In this document: positions 1 to 27,811 of the stretch, in pieces
Layout: every line of letters begins with the position of its first letter
Position numbering within the stretch: the stretch's first letter is position 1
Source of the DNA: an uncultured Rhodobacterales bacterium
GTDB lineage: Bacteria; Pseudomonadota; Alphaproteobacteria; Puniceispirillales; GCA-002684695
Direction: 5' to 3'
NCBI GenBank assembly: GCA_964502335.1
Contig: CAZCWO010000006.1
Location: 1-35,117, forward strand
DNA length: 35,117 nt
Notes under the pieces: generated by a model
The model's input: only the letters and a program-made list of their open reading frames with translations
Databases searched by the model: none
Told to the model about the DNA's origin: nothing
Program-made: the position numbers and the translations under genes

Positions 1-947
1 TTGATTTCTTCATGGTAATTGATAATGTCGTTACTTTTCGTCCAAACTTTTAGTTCATTTACTAATTCATAAAGGAATTCTATATCATCATCAACTTTAG
101 TCTCTTTAACTTTCTTGCCCAACTCCAAAGACTCTAATATATTATCATTTTCTAAATTCATTAAGATGTACTCATTGATTTTGACTTCTGCATGCTTAAT
201 AAATTTAAATAATTTATCTTTTTCTAATACTAGATCTTTCTCCCTTTTGGCTTTTCTCTGACCAATAAATAAAATAAAATCTTCGTCTTTAGAAACATAC
301 TCTAGAAGACTTTCATAATTGGTAATAAATTCTTGATTTGGATTATCAATGTTACTATTTTTTAATTTTAGGAAAAGTTCTCCTAATATAATTGGATCCA
401 AGTTATTAGTTTGTTTCATAAAGTCTTTAATATCACCAGTCAGTAAAGCACTTTCTTTTTTTATTGCATTGAAGCGATTAGAAATATTTGAATCTAATCC
501 AACAATAATTTCTTTTTCTTTGTTCAAACTAGCTTCTACGACAATTCCATTAGTTGCATTGCTTAAGTTGTTATTACTTGAAAATGCATATTCTGCATTT
601 TTAGTTATGATTGATCTGCAAGAGTTTTTGTCATCAAGAATAATGAGAGTTCCAGTATTATTGTTTTTGGTTTTTGAAATAATCATGTTAGCATGATAAC
701 CTTGCAAGTTATAAATGTATTCATAATCATTATATTTAGTAATTTGCTTTAATTTTTTATCATTTGAAGGGAGGTTAATTATGTATAAGTTTTCTTCTTT
801 TGATAAGATTTCTTTAAAAGAAATCTCTAAGTATGCTTGGCACTGGATTGAAGGATTAATTAAATAAAAGGTTTCAGCTTGCAATGAAATAGGTAAAAAT
901 ACTAATAAAGAAAAAAATTTTAACCATTTAAATAATTTAATAATCAT
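1..947 (-). CDS. Exported protein of unknown function, with its C-terminus beyond the window start. Its N-terminal ~100-aa two-Cys domain is paralogous to the N-terminus of the MORN-caspase protein.
   Basis: Absent from the supplied ORF track because it has no stop inside the window. ATG at 947..945 on the minus strand. I read every minus-strand codon from 947 down to 5..3 (315 codons) and found no stop. Translation begins MIIKLFKWLKFFSLLVFLPISLQA|ETFYLINPSIQCQAYLEISFKEILSKEENLYIINLPSNDKKLKQITKYNDYEYIYNLQGYHANMIISKTKNNNTGTLIILDDKNSCRSIITKNAEYA. This is a signal peptide followed by a domain that aligns without gaps to the caspase protein N-terminus. It starts 8 nt after the stop of 956..1762, so it is probably co-transcribed. 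The listed + ORF 349..696 is its antisense shadow. Confidence 0.8.
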   Translation of the reverse strand, partial: MIIKLFKWLKFFSLLVFLPISLQAETFYLINPSIQCQAYLEISFKEILSKEENLYIINLPSNDKKLKQITKYNDYEYIYNLQGYHANMIISKTKNNNTGTLIILDDKNSCRSIITKNAEYAFSSNNNLSNATNGIVVEASLNKEKEIIVGLDSNISNRFNAIKKESALLTGDIKDFMKQTNNLDPIILGELFLKLKNSNIDNPNQEFITNYESLLEYVSKDEDFILFIGQRKAKREKDLVLEKDKLFKFIKHAEVKINEYILMNLENDNILESLELGKKVKETKVDDDIEFLYELVNELKVWTKSNDIINYHEEI

Positions 948-955
948 TGAAATAT

Positions 956-1762
956 TTATCCACAACCATCACTGCTGGAAGAAGCAACCAATTCACCTTC
1001 TTCACCGTTTTCTGTTCTGGAGCATATTGTCCAACCTTTTGCAATATAGTCAGCTTCTAGCCTATCAAAGAAATCACTTAGACTTTCATAAACCTGCTCT
1101 TGCACTTGTTTCTCAATCTGCTCTTGCACTTGCTTCTCAACTTGTTCTTGCACTTGTTTCTCAACTTGTTTTTCTACTTTTTTATCAACAGTATCGCTGA
1201 CTTTTTCATTAATATTTTTTAAAACCTGCAAAGAAAGCTTTTCTTTTTTCTTTTTTCGCATTAATGCGACTACCTCATTTTCATCTAAATTAATTTTATC
1301 AGTGTTGATAGAAGAGGAAATAAAAATAATTGCATTTTCCTCAGATAAATTTAGTTGGTCTAGAAAAGAGTGATTAGCGCTTCCTATAATAAATTTTTGT
1401 AAATCATTTACGTTTGAAAAATGATTAAGTTTTGCAATTTTTTCTATATAATTGCTTCGTAGGTCTATGCCCGACATCCTTAACAATGGTGTACCTGGAA
1501 TAAAAAGTTCATTACCAAAGTAATTTTTTGGACTCTGGCCTCTGCCACTCGCCTTTGGCCAATCTTTTGATGGGTTTGAAAGTTGATTTTGAAATCTAAC
1601 GCCATAACTTTCTTTTTTTATGTTTCCATCTGCATCGATAACTGTCCCGTCAGATTTCCAAACAACTTGAGCAACAGATATTAAACTATAGAAAGACAAT
1701 TGCATTAAACAAATAGTTATAATTAATGAAACTTTCATGTTTTTTGAAATTCTACTAAACAT
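956..1762 (-). CDS. Exported coiled-coil protein with EKQVQEQV octad repeats, function unknown
   Basis: Long minus-strand ORF. The probable true start is the internal ATG at 1738 (MKVSLIITICLMQLSFYSLISVAQ|VVWK, a signal peptide). The C-terminal third is K/E/Q-rich (KKKKEKLS...VEKQVEKQVQEQVEKQVQEQIEKQVQEQV). It ends in a Cys-containing tail, WTICSRTENGEEGELVASSSSDGCG. I recognised no family by eye. Confidence 0.7.
   Translation of the reverse strand: MFSRISKNMKVSLIITICLMQLSFYSLISVAQVVWKSDGTVIDADGNIKKESYGVRFQNQLSNPSKDWPKASGRGQSPKNYFGNELFIPGTPLLRMSGIDLRSNYIEKIAKLNHFSNVNDLQKFIIGSANHSFLDQLNLSEENAIIFISSSINTDKINLDENEVVALMRKKKKEKLSLQVLKNINEKVSDTVDKKVEKQVEKQVQEQVEKQVQEQIEKQVQEQVYESLSDFFDRLEADYIAKGWTICSRTENGEEGELVASSSSDGCG
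1094..1177 (-). repeat. In-frame 24-bp tandem repeat, about 3.5 copies, inside CDS 956..1762
   Basis: Plus-strand units are ctgctcttgcacttgtttctcaat (1094..1117), ctgctcttgcacttgcttctcaac (1118..1141), ttgttcttgcacttgtttctcaac (1142..1165) and the partial ttgtttttctac (1166..1177). They encode the (V/I)EKQVQEQ octads. Confidence 0.9.
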
Positions 1763-1857
1763 ATATTATTATTTATTGTTTATTGTGTATTATAATTTAT
1801 CATTATAATTAAACACAATTTTTTTGATATTTATATTAAATTGTAAAATCTATTTAA

Positions 1858-4620
1858 TTGATAGTTATTAAAATGAATAATTTTTTGAAATTATTGATCT
1901 CATTAATATTATTAATTGCTCCTATTTCTTTGAATGCTCAAACATTTTATTTAATCAATCCCTCTGAAACATGCAAAGAGTACCTTGGAAGTGCATTTAA
2001 TAATTTTTTCAAAAAGAGAGATAACATCTATTCTATGGAAGTTTTGGAATCTAAAGAGGGGGTAAGCAAAATAACAAAATATAAGGATTTAGAATTTGTA
2101 TATACCATTCAAGGTAATGGGGCGCGCCTAATAATAACTAAAGAGAAAACTCAAAACACAGGCACACTATCTTTTCTTGATGAAGATAAACCTTGTAATT
2201 CACTTATAACATTAGATAAAACCTATGCTACTAATTTTATTAATTTAGATAACAAAATAGAAACTTCATTCGACCAATCTAACAACAAGAACCATTCAAA
2301 TTATAATTTTTCTCAATTGCCTCTATGTAAAGGTGAGTATAATTCTTCTATTTGGTCAAATTGCTTTGGTGAAATTAAAACTAAAAATGGAGATAAGTAT
2401 ATTGGTGAATGGAGAAATGGAAAATATTTTGGGACAGGAAGTTATTTCTTTAAAAATGGTGACGAATACTTTGGTGAGTGGAAAGATAATAAATTTGAAG
2501 GCATTGGAACTTATAAATTTAAAAATGGCAATAAATTTATAGGCCAACATAAATCAGGAAAATTTAATGGCTTTGGCACTTTTGTTTATAACAGTGGTGC
2601 AAGGGATGTAGGTGAGTGGAAAGAAGGAAAATTAAATGGTCAGGCTATTCAATATAATTTTGACGGTACCATAAAACTTCAAGGAATTTTTAAAGATGAT
2701 AAATTAACTAAATCAAGTATTATCACAGCAAAAAGTAAAATTCAAAAAAATTCAAATCTTCCAGTATGCTCTTCTAAGACTGCTATTTCAATCGATCAGC
2801 CAGTTGAATGGAATTGGGATAATTGTTTAGGGAAAATTCATATTTTGGATGGTAAATTTAAAGATTGGAAGTATGACGGAAATTTTAAAAATGGAAAATT
2901 ACATGGTTTTGGAAAAATTAGATATAAAGATGGAAGTAATTTTATAGGTGAGTTCCAAAAAGGAAAAAAACATGGCAAGGGGACTATGGTTTTTGGTTCA
3001 AAATCTAACAAAGCTGGGGATAAATATGTTGGTGAATATAGAGAAGGAAAAAAGGACGGGCAGGGTATATTTACATTTTCAGATGGAGAAAAATATGATG
3101 GTGAATGGAAAAATGATAAAAGAAATGGCATAGGAAAAAATGTTTGGGCAAATGGTAGTATGTATATAGGGGAATGGAAAAGTAATAAACAGAATGGATT
3201 TGGAACCTTTTCCTTTGCTAATGGAGATAGAGATGTTGGCCAATGGATTGACAATAAATTAAATGGTGATGCTGTTCAATATTATTCTGATGGAAGCATA
3301 TTTAGGCAAGGGGTTTTTAAGGATGACAAGTTTCTATATGATAAGAAAGTTCTAATTGAAAATGAAAGTATTAATCCAAACAAAGCTCTTAAAAATAAAG
3401 AGAATATAAATTGTGAAGATGGTTTTGAAAAAATTGGCGATAATTGCATCAGCAAAGCTTTATCTGATGAGTTGGTAGCAGCTTTAAACAAAGCTAAAGA
3501 ACTTGAAGAAGAACTTTCTAAGCTCAAAGTAGAGAATAAAAAGAAAAAACAAAAAATTAATTCTGACGATCAATTGCCAACTATCAGTTCGTTGAAATAT
3601 AACTATTCAGATTATAATGTTACCATTGAAGGTATTGTTTCTGATAATGTTGAAGTAGCAGAAGTTCTTATTAACAATGAAATAGTTTTCCTTGATAGTG
3701 ACGGAGCTTTTCAGGAAACGCTTTATATTCCAAGAAATGGTACAAAAATTAATATTATTGCATTTGATTTAAAGGGTAACAAATCTATAAAAACAATTCA
3801 TTTACAACGCAAAGAAACTGAAAAAAATATTGGTCCTTTTTTTGAGGCGCTTAATCCAACTGGAAAAATTGCTACAGTGAATAAAAATTCTTTAGCACTG
3901 ATTGTCGGTATATCTAAATATGAAAAAACTTCAGCTGAGGCAATTTATGCCGATAATGACGCTAAAATGTTTTATGACTATGCAAGGTTTAAACTTGGTA
4001 TACCAACATCAAACATAAAAGAATTGATTAATGAAAATGCGGAAGAAAGCGAAATACTTTTAGCTTTAAAAGATTGGATCGGACGAAACTCTCAAAAGGG
4101 TAAGAGTGATATTTTTATTTTTTTTGCGGGACATGGCATGTCATCGCATAACGGTGAAAATATGTATTTACTGCCTTATGACGGATCTCCAAGATTATTA
4201 GAAGATTCAGCTATTTCAAGGAATAGACTTTTTAATGAGGTTTCATCCTTTCAACCACGATCAGTCAGCGTATTTTTTGACACTTGTTTTTCTGGATCAG
4301 CTAGAGATAATGACACTCTTTTGTCATCAAGGCCAGTGTTAATTGTTCCTAAAGAAAAACCTATTCCTGAAAACTTTACATTGTTTTCTGCTGCTGCAGC
4401 TGATCAAGTTGCGAACCCTTTAAAAGAGGTTGAACATGGAATGTTTTCTTACTTTCTGATGAAAGGAATGGAGGGGAACGCTGACCAAAATAATGATAAC
4501 TTAATTACAACCGGAGAACTTCATTCATATGTTCAAAGTAACGTAATGAAGCATTCTTTAGGATCTCAAACGCCAGAATTGCATGGGGATCACAATAAAG
4601 TTCTTTTAAGAATTAATTAA
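1858..4620 (+). CDS. Secreted MORN-repeat / peptidase C14 (caspase-like, orthocaspase) multidomain protein
   Basis: 920-aa ORF. The likely start is ATG 1873 (MNNFLKLLISLILLIAPISLNAQ|TFY, a signal peptide) rather than TTG 1858. Domain order: two-Cys N-domain, two blocks of MORN-type repeats (pattern Y.GEWK.GK.NG.G.....G, 4 + 6 copies), a coiled-coil linker (ELEEELSKLKVENKKKKQK), a beta-rich spacer, then a C-terminal caspase fold. The catalytic dyad is in canonical contexts: IFIFFAGHG (His codon 4132..4134) and VFFDTCFSG (Cys codon 4285..4287). Confidence 0.9.
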   Translation: MIVIKMNNFLKLLISLILLIAPISLNAQTFYLINPSETCKEYLGSAFNNFFKKRDNIYSMEVLESKEGVSKITKYKDLEFVYTIQGNGARLIITKEKTQNTGTLSFLDEDKPCNSLITLDKTYATNFINLDNKIETSFDQSNNKNHSNYNFSQLPLCKGEYNSSIWSNCFGEIKTKNGDKYIGEWRNGKYFGTGSYFFKNGDEYFGEWKDNKFEGIGTYKFKNGNKFIGQHKSGKFNGFGTFVYNSGARDVGEWKEGKLNGQAIQYNFDGTIKLQGIFKDDKLTKSSIITAKSKIQKNSNLPVCSSKTAISIDQPVEWNWDNCLGKIHILDGKFKDWKYDGNFKNGKLHGFGKIRYKDGSNFIGEFQKGKKHGKGTMVFGSKSNKAGDKYVGEYREGKKDGQGIFTFSDGEKYDGEWKNDKRNGIGKNVWANGSMYIGEWKSNKQNGFGTFSFANGDRDVGQWIDNKLNGDAVQYYSDGSIFRQGVFKDDKFLYDKKVLIENESINPNKALKNKENINCEDGFEKIGDNCISKALSDELVAALNKAKELEEELSKLKVENKKKKQKINSDDQLPTISSLKYNYSDYNVTIEGIVSDNVEVAEVLINNEIVFLDSDGAFQETLYIPRNGTKINIIAFDLKGNKSIKTIHLQRKETEKNIGPFFEALNPTGKIATVNKNSLALIVGISKYEKTSAEAIYADNDAKMFYDYARFKLGIPTSNIKELINENAEESEILLALKDWIGRNSQKGKSDIFIFFAGHGMSSHNGENMYLLPYDGSPRLLEDSAISRNRLFNEVSSFQPRSVSVFFDTCFSGSARDNDTLLSSRPVLIVPKEKPIPENFTLFSAAAADQVANPLKEVEHGMFSYFLMKGMEGNADQNNDNLITTGELHSYVQSNVMKHSLGSQTPELHGDHNKVLLRIN
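2311..2706 (+). repeat. MORN module 1 (internal protein-level duplication, 4 MORN repeats)
   Basis: Opens with SQLPLCKGEYNSSIWSNCFGEIK, followed by YIGEWRNGKYFGTG / YFGEWKDNKFEGIG / FIGQHKSGKFNGFG / DVGEWKEGKLNGQA. Closes with IQYNFDGTIKLQGIFKDDKL. Confidence 0.8.
2752..3333 (+). repeat. MORN module 2 (internal protein-level duplication, 6 MORN repeats)
   Basis: Opens with SNLPVCSSKTAISIDQPVEWNWDNCLGKIH, followed by six MORN units. Closes with VQYYSDGSIFRQGVFKDDKF. The head (LP.C ... NC.G.I) and tail (.QY..DG.I..QG.FKDDK) match those of module 1. Confidence 0.8.
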
Positions 4621-5868
4621 CTTAGTTTTTATAAAATTAGAAACTTTAATTCCCAACATGTTATAGTGTTCATTTGCAGTTACATTCTTTGTGCTTAAAC
4701 GCTTTAATGCCTTCAGAGATTTATATAATCTAAGGTTATTATTTTCTTCTAATGACATAAGACCAGTTAAATAATAGTAATTTGCTGATGTCTTTATATT
4801 ATTTTTAATTTCATTTATTACTGCATAATTATAATTTGTCATAGAATGTTGGGGGTTTAACTTTATTGCTTTATCAAATGATGCAAAAGCTAATTTATTT
4901 TCTTGCTCTTTTAAATAGGATGATCCCAGTATAGAATATATTTCAGCGTCATTATATCCTTTTGCAATTGCACTTAATCCAAAATCAATAGAAGATTTAT
5001 AATTTTTTAATAAAAATTCTGACTTACTTGCAAAATAATAATTTTCTGGAACACTGGGATTGAGATTAATAGAAATTTTAGATTCGATCAAAGCTTGTTC
5101 ATATTGACCAGTTTCAATAAAGTTTTGAATTTTTAAATTATCTAAATAAATTGTAGAAAGTTTTTGTTGGTCTTTATTTAAAATTGCAAAAAATTCATTA
5201 TTGGCAACTATTTTTTGTTTGTTAGGAAGAGTGCTCATAACACGCCTTGAAACAGTATCAACCATTTGCAATACTGTTTCATCTTCTCTATTTGAAGAAG
5301 CTTCTAATATTCCTGTAACCAATGATATAGGTGACACTGGTATTGAGCCTTCGCTACTAATTGCTGAATGTTTTGCTGACCAAAGTACTTTTGAAAACTT
5401 GTCAGTCAATTCTAATTCAATCCCGACAGAAGTAAATGAGTATAAAACTAAATAATTATTAGTAAATGTAGTAATTTTCCCATTTATAATAGCGTCACAG
5501 TTTAATAATTCTAATAGTCGATCGTTTGAAATGTTTTGATTATTATCAAGGATGTAATCTGTCCTAGTTAAATTAATATACTCGTAATTTTTTGTACTCA
5601 ATAATCCAAATAAAGCATTTCTAATTAATTTAGATTTATTAAGATGTTCATAATCGTAGTTATTTGTATTGTCGGAAATCTTTCCAATTGCAATACAATT
5701 TACTTTATTTGGATTAAAGTTCTCATCCAAAGAAAACTCTACAATTTCTCTTGATGAAATTTGTTTATTATTGCTAAGCACGTCAACCTTTTTATAGATT
5801 GGTGTCGAGCATGAAGAAAAAAATAACAAAATAAATATTACTGAGATATAATTTAAATCTTTAGGCAT
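4606..5868 (-). CDS. Lipoprotein with an N-terminal small alpha/beta lipoprotein module (DUF799/GNA1162-like by eye) and C-terminal TPR repeats
   Basis: Signal peptide with a lipobox-like FSSC|S (MPKDLNYISVIFILLFFSSCSTP). The N-terminal ~200 aa resembles the small periplasmic lipoprotein modules of the DUF799/LpoB/TolB-N class (..CIAIGKISDNT...CDAIINGKITTF...VGIELELTD..SKVLWSAKHS..); this is unverified. The C-terminal half has TPR-like A/Y/L periodicity (YEQALIESKISINLNPSVPENYYFASKSEF..; AFASFDKAIKLNPQH). Its 3-prime end overlaps the convergent caspase gene by 15 nt. Confidence 0.7.
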   Translation of the reverse strand: MPKDLNYISVIFILLFFSSCSTPIYKKVDVLSNNKQISSREIVEFSLDENFNPNKVNCIAIGKISDNTNNYDYEHLNKSKLIRNALFGLLSTKNYEYINLTRTDYILDNNQNISNDRLLELLNCDAIINGKITTFTNNYLVLYSFTSVGIELELTDKFSKVLWSAKHSAISSEGSIPVSPISLVTGILEASSNREDETVLQMVDTVSRRVMSTLPNKQKIVANNEFFAILNKDQQKLSTIYLDNLKIQNFIETGQYEQALIESKISINLNPSVPENYYFASKSEFLLKNYKSSIDFGLSAIAKGYNDAEIYSILGSSYLKEQENKLAFASFDKAIKLNPQHSMTNYNYAVINEIKNNIKTSANYYYLTGLMSLEENNNLRLYKSLKALKRLSTKNVTANEHYNMLGIKVSNFIKTKLINS

Positions 5869-5909
5869 ACTAAAAGGCTTTAAAATTAATATTAAAGTTA
5901 TTTATTATT

Positions 5910-7523
5910 ATGATTTTATTTAGCTCATTAAATCAAGTAACGGTTAAAGTAATATACTTTTTTATTATTAATATTATTTTAATTAAAACCTCGTTCGCCT
6001 TAACAGATGAACAGTTTAATAGAGTTAATTCTTTAATTGAGCAACAAAATATTGAAAAATCTTTTGAGTTGTTGAAAACTTTTCAATCTAATGAAGAAGA
6101 ACTATCCTCAAGGTCCCTTTTATTGTTTGGAAAAATTTACCTTGAACTAGGGCAACCACTTAAAGCTATTAATTATTTTGAGTCTGTTTATTATTCTTCA
6201 ATTGAATTAAACGATTACGCATACGTAGGAATGGCTAATTCTGAATTTATGCTAGGCAACTTATCAAAATCAAAAGCTTTTGCTTTAAAGGCTTTAAATA
6301 TTAATCCTAATTTAACTGATGCAATAATTATTTTGGCTCAAATTTTAGCTGATGAAAACTTAATTGAAAAATCTGATAAATTATTTTTGTCAACTTTGGA
6401 CTCTAGTCCTAGCAGTTCCTACGCAGGAAGAAAATTTGTTGAAACTCTTCTGAGAAGAAATCAAATTGACAAAGCGGAAACTATTCTTAAGCAGACAATA
6501 ATTAATAACAGTATTGATGCTCCATCATTGGAATTGTTTTCTGATATATATTGGTTAAGAGGAGAGCTGAAAACTGCAATAAAATTCAAACAACAAGCAA
6601 AGGAAAAATATTTAGAAGTTGGTAATAAGATAAAAGCTAGAAAAATCAATGACTGGTTGGCGTTCCAAGTTAATACAAATAAAACAATTTCAGAGATATA
6701 TACACAAGAATTAATCTCAAAAAAGGTGGTCGGTAATTTAGCAATTATCAATTCAGATAAAGTTGAACCCAATAAGCAGTTATATCAAAATAAGCAAAAG
6801 ACTAACGTGACTGATAGGATTGCATTTGAACCAAAAATTACACCAGAAGAAATCATAATTAACAATAGTAAACCAGTTTTTACTGGCAGTGGAGCCATTA
6901 TAAATGGTGGAAAATGGATTTTAACAAATAAGCATGTAGTTAATAATTTAAACTATATAATTGTTAGAAATGGATTGGGTGAAATCAGAAATGTAAAAGA
7001 AATTAGAGTTGCAGAAGATGATGATTTAGCAATTTTGATTCTATCAAAGCCCTATTCTTCAGATTACTCATTAAGTATTAATGATTTTAAAAAAGGTAAA
7101 ACTGGTTCAAGTATATATGTTATTGGCTATCCCATCGCGTCTCTATTTGGAAGTTTTCATCCTTCGATAACACAAGGGATCATTAGTAATCCATTAGGAT
7201 TTGATGAAAATAATAATGAATTTCAAATTACAGCAAAAATTAATCCAGGAAATAGTGGCGGTCCAATTTTTAATAAATTTGGGAAAATTGTTGGTATTGT
7301 TACTGGTAAATTAGATAGTCAAAAAATATTAAAAAATGAAGGGTTTTATCCAGAAGATATTAATTTTGGAATTCAACCTGATGCAATCCTTTCTTTTTTA
7401 AATGTAAATAATGATGATAGAATAAAATTGTTGTCAGATATTTCCTATGATTATGAATATAACATTGAAGATTTATATAAGTACATGAGGTCAGCCATTG
7501 TTTTTATTGTTGCTCAGAGATAG
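5910..7523 (+). CDS. Exported TPR-repeat / trypsin-like serine protease
   Basis: It has a hydrophobic N-terminal signal or anchor (VKVIYFFIINIILIKTSFA|LTD). The N-terminal ~250 aa are TPR-like (LLLFGKIYLELGQPLKAINYFES; AFALKALNINPNLTDA). The C-terminal ~200 aa carry a chymotrypsin-fold triad in typical contexts: WILTNKHVV (His codon 6933..6935), EDDDLAILIL (Asp) and INPGNSGGPIFN (Ser codon 7254..7256). Confidence 0.85.
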   Translation: MILFSSLNQVTVKVIYFFIINIILIKTSFALTDEQFNRVNSLIEQQNIEKSFELLKTFQSNEEELSSRSLLLFGKIYLELGQPLKAINYFESVYYSSIELNDYAYVGMANSEFMLGNLSKSKAFALKALNINPNLTDAIIILAQILADENLIEKSDKLFLSTLDSSPSSSYAGRKFVETLLRRNQIDKAETILKQTIINNSIDAPSLELFSDIYWLRGELKTAIKFKQQAKEKYLEVGNKIKARKINDWLAFQVNTNKTISEIYTQELISKKVVGNLAIINSDKVEPNKQLYQNKQKTNVTDRIAFEPKITPEEIIINNSKPVFTGSGAIINGGKWILTNKHVVNNLNYIIVRNGLGEIRNVKEIRVAEDDDLAILILSKPYSSDYSLSINDFKKGKTGSSIYVIGYPIASLFGSFHPSITQGIISNPLGFDENNNEFQITAKINPGNSGGPIFNKFGKIVGIVTGKLDSQKILKNEGFYPEDINFGIQPDAILSFLNVNNDDRIKLLSDISYDYEYNIEDLYKYMRSAIVFIVAQR

Positions 7524-8304
7524 TGTTTTATTATTGATATTTCTAATTGTCATCCCAGTGAAAGCTGAAGTTTTTTCAAGTAATGGAACTTATTTTTTTC
7601 CTACAAATATAAGTGAGGAAGATTGTTACTTCAAAGCACAAAGTAACGCGATAAAAGCAGTTATGGAAAAAGCGGGCCTGTCTTATGTTGTAAGCTCAGA
7701 AAACCTTAATTGCTCTGAAATTAAAGATAAAAATACTTGTGAGTATTTTCAAGATAGTCAGATATATTATGAAGGAGGTTTCATAACTTCAAAAAAGTTT
7801 TCAAATAATCGAATATTATTTGAAGGCTCTATTAATAGAAAATGTTCGGTTCATTTAGTGGCTGATATAAAAAAGTTTAAATCTAAACATGATCCCAATT
7901 ATATTCTGGAAGTAAATTTGAACAATTATATATTTAGGGATGGTGATGAAATTTTAATTAACGGTGAAACAAACTTACCTTCAAATATTTATTTATTTAA
8001 TTTTGTTAATGATTCTGAAGAGTATCAACTGATAATACCAAATAAGTTTGAAAAATTAACTAACTTGAATGGTCCCTTTAATATTCCTTCGAACCAAAAA
8101 TATAAATTGGTAGCAAAATTTCCTATTGATCATAATAAAGACATAATTCAAGAGCAATTTATGTTGTTGATAACTAAAACAAATAAAGAAGAGTTCAAAG
8201 TTATTGATATTGAGTCCTCAGTATCTTTATTAAGTAGATTAAATGATTTTGGCAGGAAAAATTGGAAAAAAATTCGCTTAAGTTATTTTATTATAAAGGA
8301 GTAA
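7498..8304 (+). CDS. Exported protein with a DUF4384-like C-terminal domain
   Basis: The start codon is uncertain (TTG 7498, 7507 or 7510) and the ORF overlaps the upstream stop. Signal peptide LLLIFLIVIPVKA|EVF. The C-terminal region YIFRDGDEILINGETNLPSNIYLFNFVNDSEEYQLIIPNKFEKL...KYKLVAKFP...FMLLITK matches the DUF4384 pattern as I remember it (Y..GD.i.i......YLYvf..d..g....l.PN). That domain is frequently fused or adjacent to bacterial caspase domains. Confidence 0.7.
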   Translation: MFLLLLRDSVLLLIFLIVIPVKAEVFSSNGTYFFPTNISEEDCYFKAQSNAIKAVMEKAGLSYVVSSENLNCSEIKDKNTCEYFQDSQIYYEGGFITSKKFSNNRILFEGSINRKCSVHLVADIKKFKSKHDPNYILEVNLNNYIFRDGDEILINGETNLPSNIYLFNFVNDSEEYQLIIPNKFEKLTNLNGPFNIPSNQKYKLVAKFPIDHNKDIIQEQFMLLITKTNKEEFKVIDIESSVSLLSRLNDFGRKNWKKIRLSYFIIKE

Positions 8305-8307
8305 ATA

Positions 8308-8943
8308 ATGTTTAGATTTAGTTTATTATTAATATTTACCTTAGTTTTTTTATCTTCTTGTACTACAACTGACAATTCTAGTAACGCTAATTCAGAGGGA
8401 ACCAATGCATCAGTAATTTTTAATAATAACAATCTTAAAGAGGATATGAGCAAAACAGAAGAAGCTTCTATAACTGTTTTAATGGTTCCTGATTGGTGCA
8501 AAAAAATGCCAAAATCTGATATTTTTATATATGCATGTGGTATTGGCAATTCATCAAATTTAAATATGTCTAATTCTAGAGCTTTGTTGGATGGAAAGGC
8601 AAAACTTGCAAACCAGATAAATAGTCAGATTACATCACGGATGGCAGATTTAATTGAAGATTTAGGAGAAAACAATGACCAAGTAACACAAGCGAGTGAG
8701 CGTGTTATTAAAAGCGTAACCAAAGAAACACAGGTTGCTGGTTTTAAAGAAGTGCAATCTGAATTTCAAAACATAGCAAGTAAATTCCAGACCTACATAT
8801 TGCTTGAATATCCAATAGGTGAAGCCAATCAATTATTATATAACAAGATTAAAAATGATAATATATTAAGTAATCAGGAATCTATTGATTCTGCACTTGA
8901 AGAGTTGGAAGCTGAAATTAATAAAAAAAGTTCTATTAATTAA
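8308..8943 (+). CDS. LPP20/FlgP-like lipoprotein
   Basis: Begins 3 nt after the previous stop. Lipobox LSSC|T (MFRFSLLLIFTLVFLSSCTTT). The core IYACGIGNSSNLNMSNSRALLDGKAKLANQINSQITS...ERVIKSVTKETQVAGFKEV resembles the LPP20 lipoprotein family pattern by eye. Confidence 0.65.
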   Translation: MFRFSLLLIFTLVFLSSCTTTDNSSNANSEGTNASVIFNNNNLKEDMSKTEEASITVLMVPDWCKKMPKSDIFIYACGIGNSSNLNMSNSRALLDGKAKLANQINSQITSRMADLIEDLGENNDQVTQASERVIKSVTKETQVAGFKEVQSEFQNIASKFQTYILLEYPIGEANQLLYNKIKNDNILSNQESIDSALEELEAEINKKSSIN

Positions 8944-8989
8944 TTTTTTTTAAATAATACATTATTATTTTTTTTGAGGTGAATCCATT

Positions 8990-10396
8990 TTGAAAGATGC
9001 TCTTTGGAGAATGTCAGCACATGAGGTGGTGTCATTAATACGAAATGGACATTTAAGTCCAAAGGAAGTTGTTGAAGCTTCAATCAATAGAATTGAAATG
9101 GTAGATGAAAAAATCAATGCTTTACCAATTCATTGTTTTGAAAGAGCACTAAATATTGCTAATAGTATTGACATAAAAAAAGAAAAAGAAAACCTTAAAA
9201 GTTTAATGGGCCTTCCTATAGCTGTCAAAGATTATAATGATGTTGGAGGTGTTTTAACAACTTTTGGTTCAAAAATTTTTACAAATAATACACCAAAATT
9301 TTCAGATGAAACGGTTTCAAAATTAGAACGAAATGGAGCTAACCCTATTGCTAAGTCTAATGTACCTGAATGGGCAGGTGGCCATACTTTCAACCCTGTG
9401 TTTGGGGTCACTCGAAATCCATTTGATAACACAAAAACGGTTGGAGGGTCTTCAGGTGGTTCGGCCGCTGCATTAGCGAGTGGGCAGGTTTGGCTTGCCA
9501 CTGGAAATGACCTAGGAGGAAGTCTTAGAACGCCAGCTGCTTTTAATAACGTTGTAGGCTTACGTCCTAGTCCTGGGGTTGTGCCAAGAGGAACAAGATT
9601 GCAACCTTTTGATACGCTTTGGGTTGAAGGGCCAATGGCAAGATCTGTTAAAGATGTCTCTTTGATGCTGGATGCTGGTTCTGGATATTCATCAAAAGAT
9701 CCTCTTTCTTTTGAACAAGATACAAAATGTTTTGTTGATAAACTCAATGATTATAAATTGCCTGCTCGGATCTCATATAGTGATAATTTAGGTATTGTGC
9801 CAATGTCTAAAGAGATCACTGTGGTAACAAACAAGGCAATTAGAAAATTAAATCATATAGGAATAGAGGTATCTGATAAGGTACCAAATTTTTCAAATGT
9901 ACTTAGTGGTTTTCGGACTCTTAGGGGAGTTCTTCTAGCTACTATGCTCGATGATTTAATAGATAAACATCGAAATGAAATCCTGAAAGATATTATAGAA
10001 AATGCAGAAGTTGGCCATAACGTGAGTAATCATGAAATTATTGAAGCTGAAAAAACTAGAAAATCTTTATTACACGAAATGCAGTTATTTTTTGAAGTTT
10101 ATGATTTTCTTATTTGCCCTTCAACATCTGTTACCCCTTTCAATATTGAAAAACCTTTTGTCACTGAAATCGATGGTCATCAATGCAAAACATATATCGA
10201 TTGGTTTGCTATAACATTTGCTTTGACAATGACTGGATGTCCAGTAGTTAGTTTGCCTTGTGGTTTTAATAAAAACGGTCTTCCAGTTGGAATTCAAATT
10301 TTAGGACAGCCAAGGCAAGAAGCAAAGCTGTTATCTTTTTGTTCACAATTGGAAGAATTATTTAATGTAAGTAAATACGTACCTTTGGAAATTTAA
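8990..10396 (+). CDS. Amidase (amidase-signature family)
   Basis: AS-family signature GGSSGGSAAALASG, a conserved Lys context PIAVKD, and an overall length of 468 aa. TTG start at 8990, preceded by the SD-like GAGGTG (8976..8981). Confidence 0.9.
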   Translation: MKDALWRMSAHEVVSLIRNGHLSPKEVVEASINRIEMVDEKINALPIHCFERALNIANSIDIKKEKENLKSLMGLPIAVKDYNDVGGVLTTFGSKIFTNNTPKFSDETVSKLERNGANPIAKSNVPEWAGGHTFNPVFGVTRNPFDNTKTVGGSSGGSAAALASGQVWLATGNDLGGSLRTPAAFNNVVGLRPSPGVVPRGTRLQPFDTLWVEGPMARSVKDVSLMLDAGSGYSSKDPLSFEQDTKCFVDKLNDYKLPARISYSDNLGIVPMSKEITVVTNKAIRKLNHIGIEVSDKVPNFSNVLSGFRTLRGVLLATMLDDLIDKHRNEILKDIIENAEVGHNVSNHEIIEAEKTRKSLLHEMQLFFEVYDFLICPSTSVTPFNIEKPFVTEIDGHQCKTYIDWFAITFALTMTGCPVVSLPCGFNKNGLPVGIQILGQPRQEAKLLSFCSQLEELFNVSKYVPLEI

Positions 10397-11318: not shown

Positions 11319-13961
11319 TCAAAAATTTAATGATATGTCTTGGTGCACAGATCTACATCTAGATATTCTTGGAACCAAGAAAGAAGGCAACCTCTCCTGA
11401 CCTCTTAATCCTATATTCTTCGAAGTTTCTTCTTGAAATTTTCTCAATAATGGCAAAACAGATTTTACTGCTAATTCTCTCCAAAATATTTCTTCATTAA
11501 GTTTTTCATCAGCCTTTTGAAGGTAATTATTTGCTTTTTCAAGGTTTTCTTTTTTAAATTCTTTTCTTGCCTTATTAAGGAGGGATTTAACTGGGGTCCC
11601 TCCGGGAACCGAACTTATTTTTTTTGAGGTCGTTTTTATCGCTTCTTGTTTGGCTTGATTATCAAGGTCTTTAATGGAAATTTTTAGTTTATTAAAATCA
11701 TTCTTAAAGTTTATGAAACCACTCCCTGAGGAAATGATTTCAATTGTTTCTTCAATTCCATCATAAGTGTCGTCCATAGCTCTACGATACTTTCGTTGAT
11801 TATTACTTAATGCCTTCAATTTATTTTGATATTCTTTAGAAACTTTTTCCCATTCTGAAGGAATTAACTTTGATAATTCCTCTTTTTCATATAAGGATAA
11901 TTTAATTTCTTCATTTATGTCATCTTTTTTATTTTGTTCGTCAGTAATTTGAAGTTCACGTTTTAAGCGTTTTAAATGGCCATCAATTTTTTTAGTATCC
12001 CTCTGGATTGTTCTAACTTTAAAATGAATATCTTGATAAGCTACAGTGGCTTCATCAAGTATTAATTTAGAAGAATTTACATTGTCGAGTTTTTCAAAAA
12101 CTGTATTTGCACTTTCTATTGATTCAGAAATTTTTGATATTAGGTTCTTTGGCAAGATACTAATTTCTAAACTAGAAAGGTTATTAATTGAGGATTGGAT
12201 GGTTTGCTTATTATTTAATAATGTTTCGGAAAGATATTCTTCAACACAATATTCTAATTTAGGGTTCATTGGAGGAGGAGCATTAAATGATGATAAATAA
12301 AAACGGTTTGGTAAGTAATTAACTAATGGTGGAAATGTACCTACAATTACAAGGGCTATTAACTGAAGTATTATAAAAGGGATAACGCCTTTATACATAG
12401 AAATTGTTGAAATAGCTTTTGATGCAACTCCCCTTAAATAGAATAAAGCAAAACCAAAGGGAGGTGTGAGGAAGCTTGTTTGAATATTTACGCCGATCAT
12501 GACGCCCAACCAAACAGCGGTGATGTTTGCACTTGGATCAGCAAGAAGAATTGGTGCTATAATAGGAACTACTACTACAGCGATTTCTATAAAATCTAAG
12601 AAAAAACCAAGTATAAATATAACTGCCATTACAACGATAAATTGTGACCAAAATCCACCAGGTAAACTTTGCAAAAAATCTTTTACATATTCCTCGCCAC
12701 CAAAACCTCTAAATGCTGCTGTTAGCATTGCCGCACCAAGAAGGATTATAAATACCATCGATGTCGTTTTCGCAGTTTCTATCATGACCTCGTTTAATGT
12801 GTTGTCAATTTTATGGGTTCTCCATATTGACCAAACAATAGAAATTACTAATGAAAAAGATGCCATCATTGCAAAAAACACTGGCATATAATTTTTTGTT
12901 ACAGCTAAATTTTTGATGTTTAAGTCATACGAATTGATAAACAAGAAAATGATTAACACTGAAATAAAACCCAACATAGCAGGGTATGCGGCGCCTTTAT
13001 TATTTTCTGTTAGTTTGTAACCAGCCATTAATGTAGCACCAATTGCACCAATTGCACCGGCTTGATTAACTGTTGCAATTCCCATAATAATTGACCCTAA
13101 GACTAGAAAAATAAGAACCAGAGGTGGCACTAAGGAGAACATGACCTTAGAAAAAAATTCTCTTGTAAAGCCAGTGGGGTTAGGTACTGCAGGAGCCATT
13201 GACGGTTTGATTAACGCTGTAATAAATATGTAAGCAAAATAAACCAGTACTAAAACAATGCCAGGCAGGAAAGCCCCTAAAAACATATCGCCGGCAGAGG
13301 TTGAAGTGACGTCAAAAGCAGATGGCATAGTAAACTCACCTGTTGCATCTTTATATAGAGACTGTCTCATGGCTGAAGCTTGATCTGAGGCTGAACCAAG
13401 CTGATCAGCTAAAATAATAAGAACAATTGACGGGGGTATGATTTGTCCCAAGGTTCCGGATGCTGCAATTGTCCCTGTAGCTAATGATGGAGAATACTTA
13501 TTTCGCATCATTGAAGGGAGGGAAATAAGCCCCATGGCTACAACTGTAGCTCCTACTATACCAGTAGTTGCTGCTAAAAGAGCACCAACAAAAACTACTG
13601 AGATACCTAACCCACCGGGAACAGGGCCAAATAAACCTGCCATGGTCATCAGTAAATCTTCTGCAATTCGTGATCTTTGCAGCATAATCCCCATAAATAT
13701 AAACAATGGAATTGCTATTAAAGTGTCACGTTCAAAGTCGTAGTAAATTGCACGAAAGTTCATGACACCTGCCGAAAGCCATTCGACAGGACCATCGTTA
13801 TAAAAGAAAATTTTTGTATCATCAAATATAAGCCATCCAAGAATAGCTGCAAGACCAATAGTGAATATGGCAGATCCAGGTAAAGCAAAAGCCACAGGGT
13901 AACCATAACCAAGTGCAACCATCATTATAATGAATAAAAGTAGTAAGAAGTAGATTTCCAT
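11319..13961 (-). CDS. dctM: TRAP transporter large permease (DctM-type) with a ~320-aa C-terminal soluble coiled-coil extension
   Basis: 880-aa ORF. Residues 1 to ~555 are polytopic membrane protein with DctM-like blocks (GIMLQRSRIAEDL, LGQIIPPSIVLIILADQ, TSFLTPPFGFALFYLRG). From NAPPPMNPKLEY (Asn560 codon 12284..12282) to the end it is hydrophilic and K/E/N-rich with heptad character. It lies directly downstream of dctQ (5-nt gap). Confidence 0.85.
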   Translation of the reverse strand: MEIYFLLLLFIIMMVALGYGYPVAFALPGSAIFTIGLAAILGWLIFDDTKIFFYNDGPVEWLSAGVMNFRAIYYDFERDTLIAIPLFIFMGIMLQRSRIAEDLLMTMAGLFGPVPGGLGISVVFVGALLAATTGIVGATVVAMGLISLPSMMRNKYSPSLATGTIAASGTLGQIIPPSIVLIILADQLGSASDQASAMRQSLYKDATGEFTMPSAFDVTSTSAGDMFLGAFLPGIVLVLVYFAYIFITALIKPSMAPAVPNPTGFTREFFSKVMFSLVPPLVLIFLVLGSIIMGIATVNQAGAIGAIGATLMAGYKLTENNKGAAYPAMLGFISVLIIFLFINSYDLNIKNLAVTKNYMPVFFAMMASFSLVISIVWSIWRTHKIDNTLNEVMIETAKTTSMVFIILLGAAMLTAAFRGFGGEEYVKDFLQSLPGGFWSQFIVVMAVIFILGFFLDFIEIAVVVVPIIAPILLADPSANITAVWLGVMIGVNIQTSFLTPPFGFALFYLRGVASKAISTISMYKGVIPFIILQLIALVIVGTFPPLVNYLPNRFYLSSFNAPPPMNPKLEYCVEEYLSETLLNNKQTIQSSINNLSSLEISILPKNLISKISESIESANTVFEKLDNVNSSKLILDEATVAYQDIHFKVRTIQRDTKKIDGHLKRLKRELQITDEQNKKDDINEEIKLSLYEKEELSKLIPSEWEKVSKEYQNKLKALSNNQRKYRRAMDDTYDGIEETIEIISSGSGFINFKNDFNKLKISIKDLDNQAKQEAIKTTSKKISSVPGGTPVKSLLNKARKEFKKENLEKANNYLQKADEKLNEEIFWRELAVKSVLPLLRKFQEETSKNIGLRGQERLPSFLVPRISRCRSVHQDISLNF

Positions 13962-13966
13962 GTCGA

Positions 13967-14980
13967 CTATGAAAACCTTTCTTGTTCAGAAGCATGATCT
14001 GGTTGCTCTGAATAATTTTCTAAATTATTTATATTGGATATGATGAAATTCGCAAACTGAAACAACATTGACAGAGCAAATATGACCAAGAAACCAGACA
14101 TTAAATACTTAACATACATGCCAAAACCTTGTTGAGTAACTTCAAAATTTAGTAATGCAAGATTAAATGGTGAAGATTCATTCCAAAGACCACGAATAAG
14201 TATTACCCAGCAAAGTGGAATGCCAAAAATTAATGAACCATAAATATTTGTATGTGCTTTTCTTTTTTCTGAAAAAGCAGCGTAAATAATATCAACTCTT
14301 ACATGACCGTCATGAACGAGCGTATATGCACTAGAGAACAGAAAAAGAGCAGCATACCAAAATCTGACTAAATCGCCCATAAAAGCTTGTTCATAAGAGA
14401 AAATGAACCTTGCTATAACTATTAAAAGCTCACCTAAGACGATCATTAATGCCAACCATATAAAATCAATACGTCTTCGTAAAAGTGCTATAATTATTCC
14501 AACTGCAATTAATGGAAAGTGAACGTACATCCCTCTAAATGAAGGTTTACCAAGTGATAGAGCTAAATCCTCACCTACAATAATCGGAAGAAAATTTTCA
14601 ATCCGAACAAAAGAAATAAAAGCGTCAACTAATCCTACAAAAAGCACCGACCAAAATGCAGCAGAAACAATTATTTCTGATATATTGTTTGGCATTTTTT
14701 CATCACGATGATTTGTTTTATTATAAATGATCCTAATTGGATAAATTATAGCTGCTAAATATAAAATTGTTTGGAAAACTCCGAGTAATTTAATTGTAAA
14801 GCTAGTATTTGTATGAATTTCTCCTAAATTAATGCCTATCATTGACAATGTTCCAAAGGCACCAGGCAAGTCAAATATGTATGTGAGAAAGTTATTTAGA
14901 ACAAATGCTCCACCTAAAAAAGCACTTGAAAGTGCTATAAAGTGCAAAAAATCCATTAATGAAACAGACTTTAAGTTCAT
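13967..14980 (-). CDS. dctQ: TRAP transporter small permease (DctQ-type) with an N-terminal extension of about four extra TM helices
   Basis: 337 aa. The canonical DctQ core starts around RRRIDFIWLALMIVLGELLIVIARFIF...YTLVHDGHVRVDIIY. The ~165 residues before it contain four hydrophobic helices (FLHFIALSSAFLGGAFVLNNFL, LLGVFQTILYLAAIIYPI, IIVSAAFWSVLFVGLVDAFI, VHFPLIAVGIIIALL). Confidence 0.85.
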   Translation of the reverse strand: MNLKSVSLMDFLHFIALSSAFLGGAFVLNNFLTYIFDLPGAFGTLSMIGINLGEIHTNTSFTIKLLGVFQTILYLAAIIYPIRIIYNKTNHRDEKMPNNISEIIVSAAFWSVLFVGLVDAFISFVRIENFLPIIVGEDLALSLGKPSFRGMYVHFPLIAVGIIIALLRRRIDFIWLALMIVLGELLIVIARFIFSYEQAFMGDLVRFWYAALFLFSSAYTLVHDGHVRVDIIYAAFSEKRKAHTNIYGSLIFGIPLCWVILIRGLWNESSPFNLALLNFEVTQQGFGMYVKYLMSGFLVIFALSMLFQFANFIISNINNLENYSEQPDHASEQERFS

Positions 14981-15002
14981 TCTAAATTAAACCTAGTTAG
15001 TA

Positions 15003-15033
15003 TTAAAAAGCAGAGCCAAATAAAAGGCTCTGC
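15003..15033 (-). terminator. Rho-independent terminator/attenuator between dctP and dctQM
   Basis: The minus strand reads GCAGAGCC-TTTTATTT-GGCTCTGC-TTTTT. This is an 8-bp stem (15033..15026 pairing with 15017..15010) with 6 of 8 G/C pairs, an 8-nt loop and a T5 tract (15009..15005). It is the only GC-rich hairpin I noticed in an intergenic region here. Confidence 0.8.
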
Positions 15034-15051
15034 AAGTAATGTGTAGTTATA

Positions 15052-16146
15052 TTATATATTATATATTCTATTTCGTTGAGCTAAATAAGCACCCTCTGTG
15101 ATAGATATCCAGCTACCAGTGTCTTTCATTGATTTAGCAAAACTTTCGTGAATACGGTTAGCAATATCAGAATGTGCTCTAGTTTCTTCAAACACTTCAT
15201 CTGCAGCTTCAGCCATTGCATCCCACACGTCATCATTAAAAGAACGGATTTTGATACCGTGGTCGCTTTTAAGCCTTGTAAGAGCTGCACCTGATTTACC
15301 CATATATTCGGTCATCATCATTTCATTCTCTTGAGTTGCGGCAGCATTGATAATTGCTTTATCAGTGTCAGATAGATCGTGCCAAAATTTTGCATTAAAA
15401 CCTGCAGCAATCATTGAGCCAGGCTCATGCATTCCACCAGTATAGTAATATTTAGCTGCTTCATAGAACTTCATAATTTCATCGTTCCATGCACCAACCC
15501 ACTCTGTAGCATCAATGGCACCAGAAACTAAGTTTTCATATATTTGACCACCGGGAACAGTTACTGGAGATGCTCCTAATTTACTGATAACGTCACCACC
15601 CAAACCAGGCATTCTCATTTTTAAACCATTAAAGTCATCAGGAGAGTTGATTTCCTTATTAAACCATCCTCCAGCTTGGGCACCTGTAGATCCAGCCATG
15701 AGACATTTTAAACCAAAGCTACCAGCAAGTTCATCCCAAAGTTCTTGACCTCCACCGTATCGTATCCATGCATTAATCTCATGGAAAGTCATGCCAAAAG
15801 GAACAGCAGTAAAATATGCCCAACCAGGATGTCTGCCCTTCCAATAGTAATCAGCAGCATGATATCCTTGAGCATTTCCTGAAGCTACTTCATCAAAACT
15901 ATCAAATGCACCAACCCTTTCGTTTGCTGCATAATAACTCACCTGTATACGCCCACCTGAGATATCTTGAATAGTTTGAGCGTATCTTTGTGCTCCTGTT
16001 CCCAATCCTGGAAAATCTCTACCCCAAGTTGCAACAATTGCCATTTCAATACGATCTTGAGCGATAGCAGGAGTAGCTAAAGTTGATGCTGCAACAACGC
16101 CAGTAGCACCTATGCCTGCTTTTTTTATAAAGTCACGCCTTTTCAT
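15052..16146 (-). CDS. dctP: TRAP transporter periplasmic solute-binding protein (DctP-type) with a TAT signal
   Basis: Twin-arginine signal MKRRDFIKKAGIGATGVVAASTLATPAIAQ. The DctP-family body has features of the mannitol/chloroaromatic-type TRAP SBP subfamily. SD-like GGGAGA lies upstream of the ATG. Confidence 0.9.
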   Translation of the reverse strand: MKRRDFIKKAGIGATGVVAASTLATPAIAQDRIEMAIVATWGRDFPGLGTGAQRYAQTIQDISGGRIQVSYYAANERVGAFDSFDEVASGNAQGYHAADYYWKGRHPGWAYFTAVPFGMTFHEINAWIRYGGGQELWDELAGSFGLKCLMAGSTGAQAGGWFNKEINSPDDFNGLKMRMPGLGGDVISKLGASPVTVPGGQIYENLVSGAIDATEWVGAWNDEIMKFYEAAKYYYTGGMHEPGSMIAAGFNAKFWHDLSDTDKAIINAAATQENEMMMTEYMGKSGAALTRLKSDHGIKIRSFNDDVWDAMAEAADEVFEETRAHSDIANRIHESFAKSMKDTGSWISITEGAYLAQRNRIYNI

Positions 16147-26971: not shown

Positions 26972-27811
26972 ATGAAATTTTCAGGAACTGAAGATTATAT
27001 TTCAACTAAGGAATTAACGATTGCTGTTAATGCTGCAATAACTTTAGAAAGACCTTTGTTGGTAAAAGGGGAACCAGGAACGGGAAAAACAGAACTTGCT
27101 AAACAAGTAGCGATTGCACTTGGGTTAGAAATTATTGATTGGTCAATCAAGTCTACAACAAAAGCCCAACAAGGATTATATGAATACGACGCTGTAAGTC
27201 GTTTAAGAGATAGTCAAATAGGTGGTAAAGATGTTTCAAATATTAATAATTACATAAAAAAAGGTAAAATATGGAACGCTTTTGAAAACGAGAAGAAGAC
27301 GGTTCTTCTCATTGACGAAATCGATAAAGCAGACATTGAGTTTCCTAATGACTTGCTTCAAGAATTAGATAAAATGGAGTTTTTTGTTTATGAAACAGGA
27401 GAAGTGATAAAATCCAAAAATCGTCCTATTGTAATAATCACCTCAAATAATGAAAAAGAACTTCCAGATGCTTTTTTAAGAAGGTGTTTTTTTCATTTTA
27501 TTCAATTTCCTGATCAAGTAACACTTACAAAAATTATTAAAGTACATTTTCCTAATATTAAGAAAACTCTTCTTGACAGATCTTTACAAAGATTTTTTGA
27601 AATTAGGGAAACACCTGGGTTGAAGAAGAAACCGTCAACTTCAGAAATATTAGATTGGCTTAAATTGCTTTTAGCTGAAGATATTGATCCTTCAGAACTA
27701 CAGAATGACAGCAAAGACTTATTGCCTAAATTGCATGGTGCTCTTCTTAAAAATGAACAAGATGTTCATTTATTTGAACGACTTGCTTTTATAGCTAGAG
27801 GCAACAATTAA
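26972..27811 (+). CDS. MoxR-like AAA+ ATPase
   Basis: Walker A LLVKGEPGTGKTELAK, Walker B VLLIDEIDKAD, sensor region IVIITSNNEKELPDAFLRRC. The 279-aa size is typical of the short MoxR/CoxD-like group. Confidence 0.85.
   Translation: MKFSGTEDYISTKELTIAVNAAITLERPLLVKGEPGTGKTELAKQVAIALGLEIIDWSIKSTTKAQQGLYEYDAVSRLRDSQIGGKDVSNINNYIKKGKIWNAFENEKKTVLLIDEIDKADIEFPNDLLQELDKMEFFVYETGEVIKSKNRPIVIITSNNEKELPDAFLRRCFFHFIQFPDQVTLTKIIKVHFPNIKKTLLDRSLQRFFEIRETPGLKKKPSTSEILDWLKLLLAEDIDPSELQNDSKDLLPKLHGALLKNEQDVHLFERLAFIARGNN

Follow-up and report, generated by a model that had tools for sequence, protein, structure and literature searches.

The stretch of DNA analysed here (35,117 nucleotides of contig CAZCWO010000006.1, from an uncultured Rhodobacterales bacterium; hereafter, the window) begins with two genes on opposite strands, one for a protein cut off by the window edge (A) and one for a caspase homologue (C). 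We find that A and C are diverged exported paralogues sharing an N-terminal architecture, which consists of a predicted Sec signal peptide, a head domain of ~100 residues, a linker and MORN repeats, and that their tails differ, with the caspase domain found in C. Our confidence in this anatomy and in the evolutionary relationship of the two proteins is high. To judge from its sequence matches, the head constitutes a domain family confined to the SAR116-like lineage of marine Alphaproteobacteria. The explanation that we favour combines the paralogy with a role of the head as an address module and with the small secreted product of the intervening gene B as the partner of the head; taken as a whole, we assign it a probability of about 0.55.

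Two exported paralogues with a common N-terminal architecture

The features of the two genes are listed below in window coordinates.

1..947, minus strand: ORF A, first 315 codons (the orthologue has 1,028 amino acids, aa); exported non-catalytic MORN-repeat paralogue of the caspase protein
876..947, minus strand: predicted Sec signal peptide of A, MIIKLFKWLKFFSLLVFLPISLQA, cut before E; read by eye
573..875, minus strand: head copy 1, residues 25-125 of A, with Cys36 at nt 840-842 and Cys110 at nt 618-620; BLASTP and AlphaFold2
1..572, minus strand: linker and conserved region of A, probably helical, residues 126-315; no family match
1873..4620, plus strand: exported MORN-Big-caspase protein C, 915 aa from ATG 1873 (920 aa from TTG 1858, the start given by the ORF lister)
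1873..1938, plus strand: predicted Sec signal peptide of C, MNNFLKLLISLILLIAPISLNA, cut before Q; read by eye
1939..2241, plus strand: head copy 2, residues 23-123 from ATG 1873, with Cys34 at nt 1972-1974 and Cys108 at nt 2194-2196
2308..3342, plus strand: two MORN arrays of C, each after an LPxC...CxG cap with a Cys pair (C152/C164; C299/C318); Pfam and motif positions
3616..4587, plus strand: constant tail of C, with a Big-like beta domain (3616..3810) and a Peptidase_C14 domain (3892..4587)

The original prediction, made from the letters of the window, had proposed that the two proteins align without gaps over ~100 residues. A formal alignment bears this out: BLASTP finds 47 identical residues out of 103 (46%), with no gaps, at 98 bits (E=1e-26), so the similarity is significant. 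The match starts shortly ahead of the signal-peptide cleavage site and ends at residue ~121/124; no other significant match exists between the two window sequences. The peptide strings quoted in that prediction agree with the translations, and the two cysteines described as conserved are indeed shared (C36/C110 in A and C34/C108 in C, the latter counted from ATG 1873, a start chosen on the basis of orthologues of C that begin with MNNFLK or MNKYLK).

The reading frame of A was also described correctly. On the minus strand, it is open from ATG 947 to base 1, a length of 315 codons, and it has no entry in the list of open reading frames (ORFs); the reason for the latter is mechanical and not biological, since the lister omits frames that run off a sequence end. 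The leader of A combines a basic n-region and a hydrophobic core with LQA before the cut, and the leaders of all family members are laid out in this way.

An initial homology search with the 315-aa fragment returned one GOS fragment only. The frame continues uninterrupted in an ENA scaffold that is 98% identical to the window (L001) and in two GOS records (L002 and L003, protein P0001). A JGI contig, L005, which was the sole locus recovered by the metagenome scan, encodes a complete orthologue of 1,028 aa, 85% identical to the window sequence over the 315 shared codons and 97% identical in the head. A genome scan with a two-sequence head alignment matched a single contig, from a SAR116 single-cell genome (L004, 'uncultured SAR116 cluster alpha proteobacterium AG-343-K16'), in which the gene order is the same and the orthologue of A extends over 568+ aa.

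The ratio of non-synonymous to synonymous substitution rates (dN/dS) of the A gene is 0.42 against L005 and 0.26 against L004, and that of its head is 0.22 and 0.21, respectively; the values for the caspase gene and gene B are 0.21 and 0.13. As judged by these ratios, purifying selection acts on the A gene and on its head. The region is also present in the marine DNA metagenomes of many studies, which contain up to 80% of the sampled words. Contigs from RNA-type marine runs (X21 and X22) cover 4..622, the 3' part of the visible ORF, at 90-99% identity, which is weak support because DNA carry-over is possible. The intact orthologue, the uninterrupted frames in L001, the GOS records and L004, and the dN/dS values therefore identify A as a functional gene and not a pseudogene, and the interruption upstream of the window that had been considered was not encountered.

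The full-length orthologue in L005 reveals what lies beyond the window edge. Its signal peptide, head and linker are followed by an LPxC-type Cys cap with three MORN repeats, a conserved and probably helical region, a (K/E)A(E/Q)-rich repeat and an LPFC..CFG cap with a long MORN array; a coiled-coil-like stretch then leads to a tail of ~190 aa. MORN repeats (Pfam PF02493) are matched at 1e-43 in L005 and 1.8e-17 in L004. At a threshold of E<=0.01, Peptidase_C14 is matched neither by the 1,028-aa orthologue nor by the 315 aa encoded in the window. A Pfam search with the C-terminal 198 aa returned nothing at E<=1, and the tail has no match in the PDB either. Residues 126-315 of the window protein likewise have zero Pfam matches at E<=1 and no PDB family, and this region is kept in L004 and L005.

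Pfam finds no MORN repeats in the 315 codons of the window because this strain variant has lost the first block. A segment of ~185 aa, corresponding to the first Cys-capped MORN block, is missing in frame from the window, L001 and the GOS records and is present in L004 and L005; the difference is placed at window ~470..560 (minus strand) and at L005 ~1230..1790. The ~185-aa difference is a strain polymorphism, and the shorter form comes from three independent assemblies.

The longer sequence changes the comparison of A with C. The L005 orthologue is 31% identical to the window caspase protein over 322 aa (E=6e-31), a match that takes in the head, the linker and the first MORN block, and the main MORN array is matched at E=1e-32. 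The same Cys cap precedes MORN repeats in both proteins. The similarity thus runs through head, linker and MORN repeats, and A and C are therefore diverged paralogues with a common N-terminal architecture and different tails; the resemblance of the two genes is simply paralogy and is ordinary. The earlier statement that the proteins diverge completely after the head holds only for the 315 visible codons. The related view of one module placed on two different payloads is not supported in that form: the C-terminal tails are unrelated, but the two proteins share their N-terminal parts.

Protein C is, by profile match, a member of Peptidase_C14 (PF00656), with residues 679-910 scoring 64.6 bits against a cut-off of 21.4 (E=1.5e-17). 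A catalytic His-Cys dyad is predicted by motif, with AGHG at residue 752 and DTCFSG at residue 803 (Cys805); DTC[FY]SG is found in 118 of 120 homologues. Pfam also detects MORN repeats in 7 stretches (4.6e-44) and gives a weak, Big-like match to Glucodextran_B. An exact look-up of the protein returned no record.

The head is a domain family of marine Alphaproteobacteria

A profile built from the two copies revealed no third head in six frames of the 35-kb window (next best E=0.28). An exhaustive search with a hidden Markov model (HMM) of 1.84 billion cluster representatives yielded 12 proteins at E<=1e-3, of which at least one is spurious (P0013); the head matches in cluster representatives are all from marine Alphaproteobacteria. 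A word-seeded profile search for the head recovered 6 proteins, and extra copies were found among homologues of the caspase tail (P0018, P0019, P0020, P0021, P0084 and P0098, with P0020 standing for a cluster of 141 sequences). The family divides into at least 8 subfamilies with identities of 20-97%. P8, C12, K68 and C86 are invariant in an alignment of 10 head sequences, and the Cys pair is invariant in 15/15 copies that cover the two positions; these copies represent at least 8 subfamilies, with identities as low as 20%.

AlphaFold2 predicts a compact fold from the 10 sequences with a pLDDT of 92.6 and a pTM of 0.83. The modelled order of elements is beta1-alpha1-beta2..beta8-alpha2; C12 lies where helix 1 begins, and C86 where the last strand begins. 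The novelty of the domain, as first suggested, is upheld by the library searches: Pfam gives no family for the window copy (best E=0.077 across 10 members), NCBIfam gives no match, and a profile search of PDB chains reaches E=0.33 at best. Foldseek searches of the model, which covered the PDB and BFVD, gave no significant match, the best values being E=0.15 (PDB, with TM <=0.45) and E=0.19 (BFVD).

Both window copies have the conserved Cys pair in a leader-bearing protein. In C, the cysteines fall into the pairs 34/108, 152/164, 299/318 and 514/525, and the sole unpaired one is the catalytic Cys805. Every non-catalytic cysteine is likewise paired in P0012, P0020, P0084 and the L005 protein; P0012 and P0084 contain only the head pair and the catalytic Cys, and the L005 protein contains 12 Cys in six local pairs. 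This local pairing of all non-catalytic cysteines fits disulfides in an oxidising compartment, and the head Cys pair probably forms one.

The head occurs in three architectures, namely head-Big-caspase, head-MORN-Big-caspase and head-MORN-unknown tail. The last of these, that of A, is the only one found so far with the head on a non-protease. Given its presence on three architectures, the role of the head is expected to be independent of a caspase in cis, and a targeting, docking or recognition role, as proposed earlier, is a reasonable reading of these arrangements.

The two window heads are 42% identical to each other, and the head of A is 44-53% identical to those of P0020, P0006 and P0005. 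Residues 1-70 of P0005 form a head that is 53% identical to the edge type and 44% to that of the window caspase, and the rest of P0005 resembles the window MORN-caspase protein. The composition of P0005 suggests head exchange or mosaic evolution between paralogues.

Gene B accompanies the head

The starts of the A and C genes are ~0.9 kb apart on opposite strands, as originally stated. The space between them holds a further gene.

956..1762, minus strand: gene B, 268-aa secreted protein with a hydrophobic leader; its stop lies 8 nt before the start of ORF A
1763..1872, no strand: AT-rich spacer separating the divergently transcribed gene B and caspase gene; sequence

Gene B is probably in the same operon as ORF A. 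A promoter and terminator scan returned sites no better than those in shuffled sequence. Homologues of B have 236-287 aa and share an invariant YFG..PGTPLLR..G segment, an acidic (E/K)QVQ repeat helix and a C-terminal Cys pair. The protein has no Pfam, NCBIfam or PDB family, and its single-sequence structure model was unusable (pLDDT 42.6).

A search with an HMM of B places a homologue immediately upstream of a gene that encodes the head in the window, L001, L002, L004, L005, L006, L008, L009 and L013. The following coordinates were obtained for five of these loci.

L004 3421..4284: gene B homologue
L005 21..827: gene B homologue
L006 2120..2836: gene B homologue
L008 814..1527: gene B homologue
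L013 362..1072: gene B homologue

The adjacency of B and the head thus holds in 5/5 testable lineages; L012 has no sequence upstream and stands outside this count. L013 comes from an organism of 49.6% GC, and its head is only 20-26% identical to the others; gene B is still adjacent. The same HMM did not find gene B in L010 or L011, which encode caspases without this head. The strict pairing of the head with gene B favours docking among the functions that the head may have.

A constant exported caspase tail with alternative heads

A search with the Big and caspase tail (window 3538..4620) returned 871 homologues at E<=1e-10. The best 120 of the 871 show 51-62% identity; several of them bear the name 'caspase family protein' and belong to Alphaproteobacteria or Candidatus Puniceispirillum (SAR116). 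Following a leader or lipobox, the N-termini of these best 120 carry 'EAKRRGLxC' repeats in 37 cases, the present head in 6 and MORN repeats only in 5, the remainder being other or short. The 'EAKRRGLxC(G)' repeat, with two Cys per unit, is the commonest head. A profile comparison of the present head with another head type (P0060) detected no relation.

Judging from these N-termini, the head found in the window is one of many alternative heads on a constant exported protease tail. Across the aligned homologues, the constant part is the coiled-coil, Big and caspase tail and the variable part is the head, which is closer to the reverse of a fixed module placed on changing payloads. The present head is, in addition, kept on the non-protease paralogue.

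Several loci contain multiple caspase paralogues. In L011, a Ca. Puniceispirillum contig, positions 1..9527 encode five tandem exported caspase paralogues, followed by a phage-integrase-family gene. Further exported caspase paralogues lie at 2211..4064 and 8960..11770 of L010, and the N-termini of the array members are mutually unrelated.

Downstream of the caspase gene, the window contains four genes that make up a companion set.

4606..5868, minus strand: GNA1162-like and TPR lipoprotein; Pfam/NCBIfam
5910..7523, plus strand: TPR and trypsin-like protease; Pfam/NCBIfam
7498..8304, plus strand: weak DUF4384-like secreted protein; Pfam/NCBIfam
8308..8943, plus strand: small lipoprotein with an LSSC lipobox

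The entire set (window 4606..8943) also lies beside caspase genes in L006 (4406..8711) and L010 (4065..8315), and its TPR lipoprotein is found beside caspase genes in L004 and L012 as well. The small lipoprotein has no Pfam or PDB family, and its likeness to LPP20 is backed solely by a weak match of the L010 counterpart. PADLOC returned generic caspase and trypsin matches only and no defence-system assignment. We found no literature on the four-gene set.

A model for the function of the head and its alternatives

In the model that we propose, A and C would be exported by Sec, and both mature proteins would start with the same ~100-residue alpha+beta head. The head would be a disulfide-stabilised periplasmic protein-binding module, and its partner would be protein B, which is small and secreted and whose gene immediately precedes those that carry the head. 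By means of their common head, probably together with the MORN arrays, the protease C and the non-catalytic A would be directed to one partner or one site in the envelope, where A may act as a scaffold, regulator or competitor of the protease. That the head is a binding or address module of some kind appears fairly probable. The identification of B as the partner is more tentative and falls somewhat short of an even chance; the gene-order link between B and the head is the sole evidence for a specific partner of the head.

Several points weigh against this model. The absence of structural relatives of the head applies to the PDB and BFVD and not to cellular predicted structures (AlphaFold DB), and the signal peptides were judged by eye, from a basic n-region, a hydrophobic core and LQA before E or LNA before Q. 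The link between B and the head consists of gene order on 9 short contigs from 5 lineages, and each of the two loci in which B was not found covers only 10-14 kb. Since the caspase gene of the window is transcribed divergently from B, only ORF A would lie in the operon of B. Finally, the companion cluster also occurs with unrelated heads; the heads would therefore not be docked to the conserved core and may instead recognise variable targets.

This last point leads to the main rival, in which the head is a module for target or substrate specificity: the catalytic tail stays constant, the heads diversify for envelope or extracellular ligands, and the edge protein binds without cutting. The high variability of heads on the constant tail among the best 120 homologues agrees with such a role, as do the several caspase paralogues per cluster (five in tandem in L011), the conserved core cluster that accompanies unrelated heads, and the head of P0005, which suggests head exchange by its identity of 53% to the edge type, against 44% to that of the window caspase. 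A specificity module leaves unexplained, however, why gene B is found with the head in all testable lineages and is missing from the loci without it, and the fold searches indicate no ligand. If specificity were the function, B could be the target, or a chaperone or immunity factor for the target. We regard this alternative as unlikely, though still a serious competitor of the model with B as a docking partner.

The head could also be a sensor that binds a small molecule or lipid and regulates the attached protein. The best PDB matches in Foldseek, which are non-significant, are fatty-acid- and retinol-binding proteins with a strand-helix-meander layout. With E >=0.15, TM-scores of 0.2-0.45 and a root-mean-square deviation of 8-17 A, however, they do not amount to a match; in addition, the 100-residue head is smaller than the 10-strand barrel of fatty-acid-binding proteins, and it has no known ligand-binding motif. 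A sensor role is accordingly very unlikely.

Still less probable is an N-terminal pro-domain or inhibitor that holds the caspase inactive until it is removed, as in other proteases of clan CD. Pro-domains are common in clan CD peptidases, and the head is N-terminal, directly follows the signal peptide and resides mostly on proteins that end in a caspase domain. Purifying selection acts on the head also in the protein without a caspase domain, however, and in the window protein ~550 residues and two MORN arrays separate the head from the caspase domain. A cystatin-like or known pro-domain identity of the head was rejected, as Foldseek gave no such structural match in the PDB.

The reading of A as a decaying pseudogene duplicate of the 5' end of the caspase gene is hardly credible: it appeals only to the truncation at the window edge and the similarity to that 5' end, and, apart from a strain-specific lesion beyond base 1, it is refuted for the lineage as a whole by the intact L005 orthologue, four other uninterrupted contigs, dN/dS of 0.26-0.42, the RNA contigs and the synteny in the SAR116 single-cell genome.

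A more specific form of the docking model can be formulated. B and the head may constitute a cognate periplasmic docking pair that recruits interchangeable cargo, within a diversifying envelope recognition-and-cleavage system of SAR116-type bacteria. We consider this extended version improbable. If true, the hypervariable heads, the tandem paralogues and the lipoprotein/trypsin core would be parts of a system for defence, competition or surface remodelling.

Other loci in the window

Three further loci were observed outside the caspase cluster. The first encodes a 590-aa protein (17532..19304, minus strand) with an N-terminal adenylate-cyclase-like region (weak LipJ-type match), a TolB-N-like stretch and C-terminal TPRs, which may be a signalling protein. 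A TRAP transporter locus (11319..16146, minus strand) encodes an unusually long DctM-type permease of 880 aa, a DctQ-like protein of 337 aa and a DctP-type binding protein. At 26972..30341, the gene for a MadB-like AAA ATPase (279 aa) precedes two ORFs, one of 395 aa on its own strand and one of 443 aa on the other strand, and NCBIfam matches neither of the two; this region may represent a MoxR-type module and is ~25 kb away from the caspase cluster.

Significance and comparison with known systems

To our knowledge, homologues of caspases are common in bacteria, but a role has been established for almost none of them, and those that are exported have received the least attention. SAR116-type bacteria are among the most abundant groups of bacteria in the ocean. 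The locus described here indicates that an abundant marine lineage maintains a large caspase family with signal peptides, in which the catalytic tail is constant and the heads are interchangeable, and one of these heads is a compact domain, predicted to fold with confidence, that has no relative in the libraries searched. It thus offers a route into what exported bacterial caspases recognise. What is new is a rare domain family and a new architecture within the prokaryotic caspase homologues; the association of gene B with the head is new, too. If the head is merely a lineage-specific structural module, the result is an addition to domain catalogues only. The wider family of head-variable exported caspases in SAR116-type bacteria is a more interesting lead than the similarity between A and C.

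A 2012 survey of prokaryotic caspase homologues described diverse accessory domains and read N-terminal hydrophobic leaders as likely signal peptides (Asplund-Samuelsson et al. 2012, PMC3501461). Like the orthocaspases and metacaspases of that survey, protein C combines PF00656 and the His/Cys motif pair with interaction repeats and an N-terminal leader. Unlike them, it has a head that is not among the accessory domains described. In the literature, we found no description of an exported head-MORN-Big-caspase architecture, of multi-paralogue clusters or of the pairing with gene B.

Among named families, the best NCBIfam match of the caspase domain is NF047832, 'caspase, EACC1-associated type' (E=3.7e-16). 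Its score of 59.3 bits lies below the cut-off of 140, membership is rejected, and NCBIfam detected no EACC1 partner. Both paralogues carry PF02493 arrays and in this respect are like bacterial MORN-repeat proteins, except that MORN does not cover the head. The adjacent lipoprotein, which carries TPRs and matches PF05643 just over the gathering score (27.7 against 25.9), recalls GNA1162-like (PF05643) neighbourhoods; nothing ties the PF05643 family directly to the head.

A parallel in organization is provided by the effector-associated domains (EADs) of NTP-dependent conflict systems, in which the presence of a small terminal domain in the products of two neighbouring genes was interpreted as a sign that this domain couples them (Kaur, Burroughs, Iyer, Aravind 2020, PMC7159879). 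As with EADs, copies of a non-enzymatic domain are carried by genes ~0.9 kb apart, one of which encodes a caspase-type effector. EAD systems are cytoplasmic, whereas the window proteins carry predicted signal peptides. In EAD systems, a copy of the domain is fused to a core NTPase, vWA or GAP1 component; there is none in the window cluster, and Pfam, NCBIfam and PADLOC found no VMAP, iSTAND, Ubl or GAP1/NTPase core among the cluster genes 1..8943. Furthermore, the adjacent window copies (42% identity) are not each other's closest relatives. With three defining features lacking, we do not assign the head to the EADs; the likeness is one of logic only. If B and the head do form a docking pair, they would represent an extracytoplasmic counterpart of the coupling principle of EADs and Death domains, with either a caspase or a non-catalytic MORN protein as the cargo.

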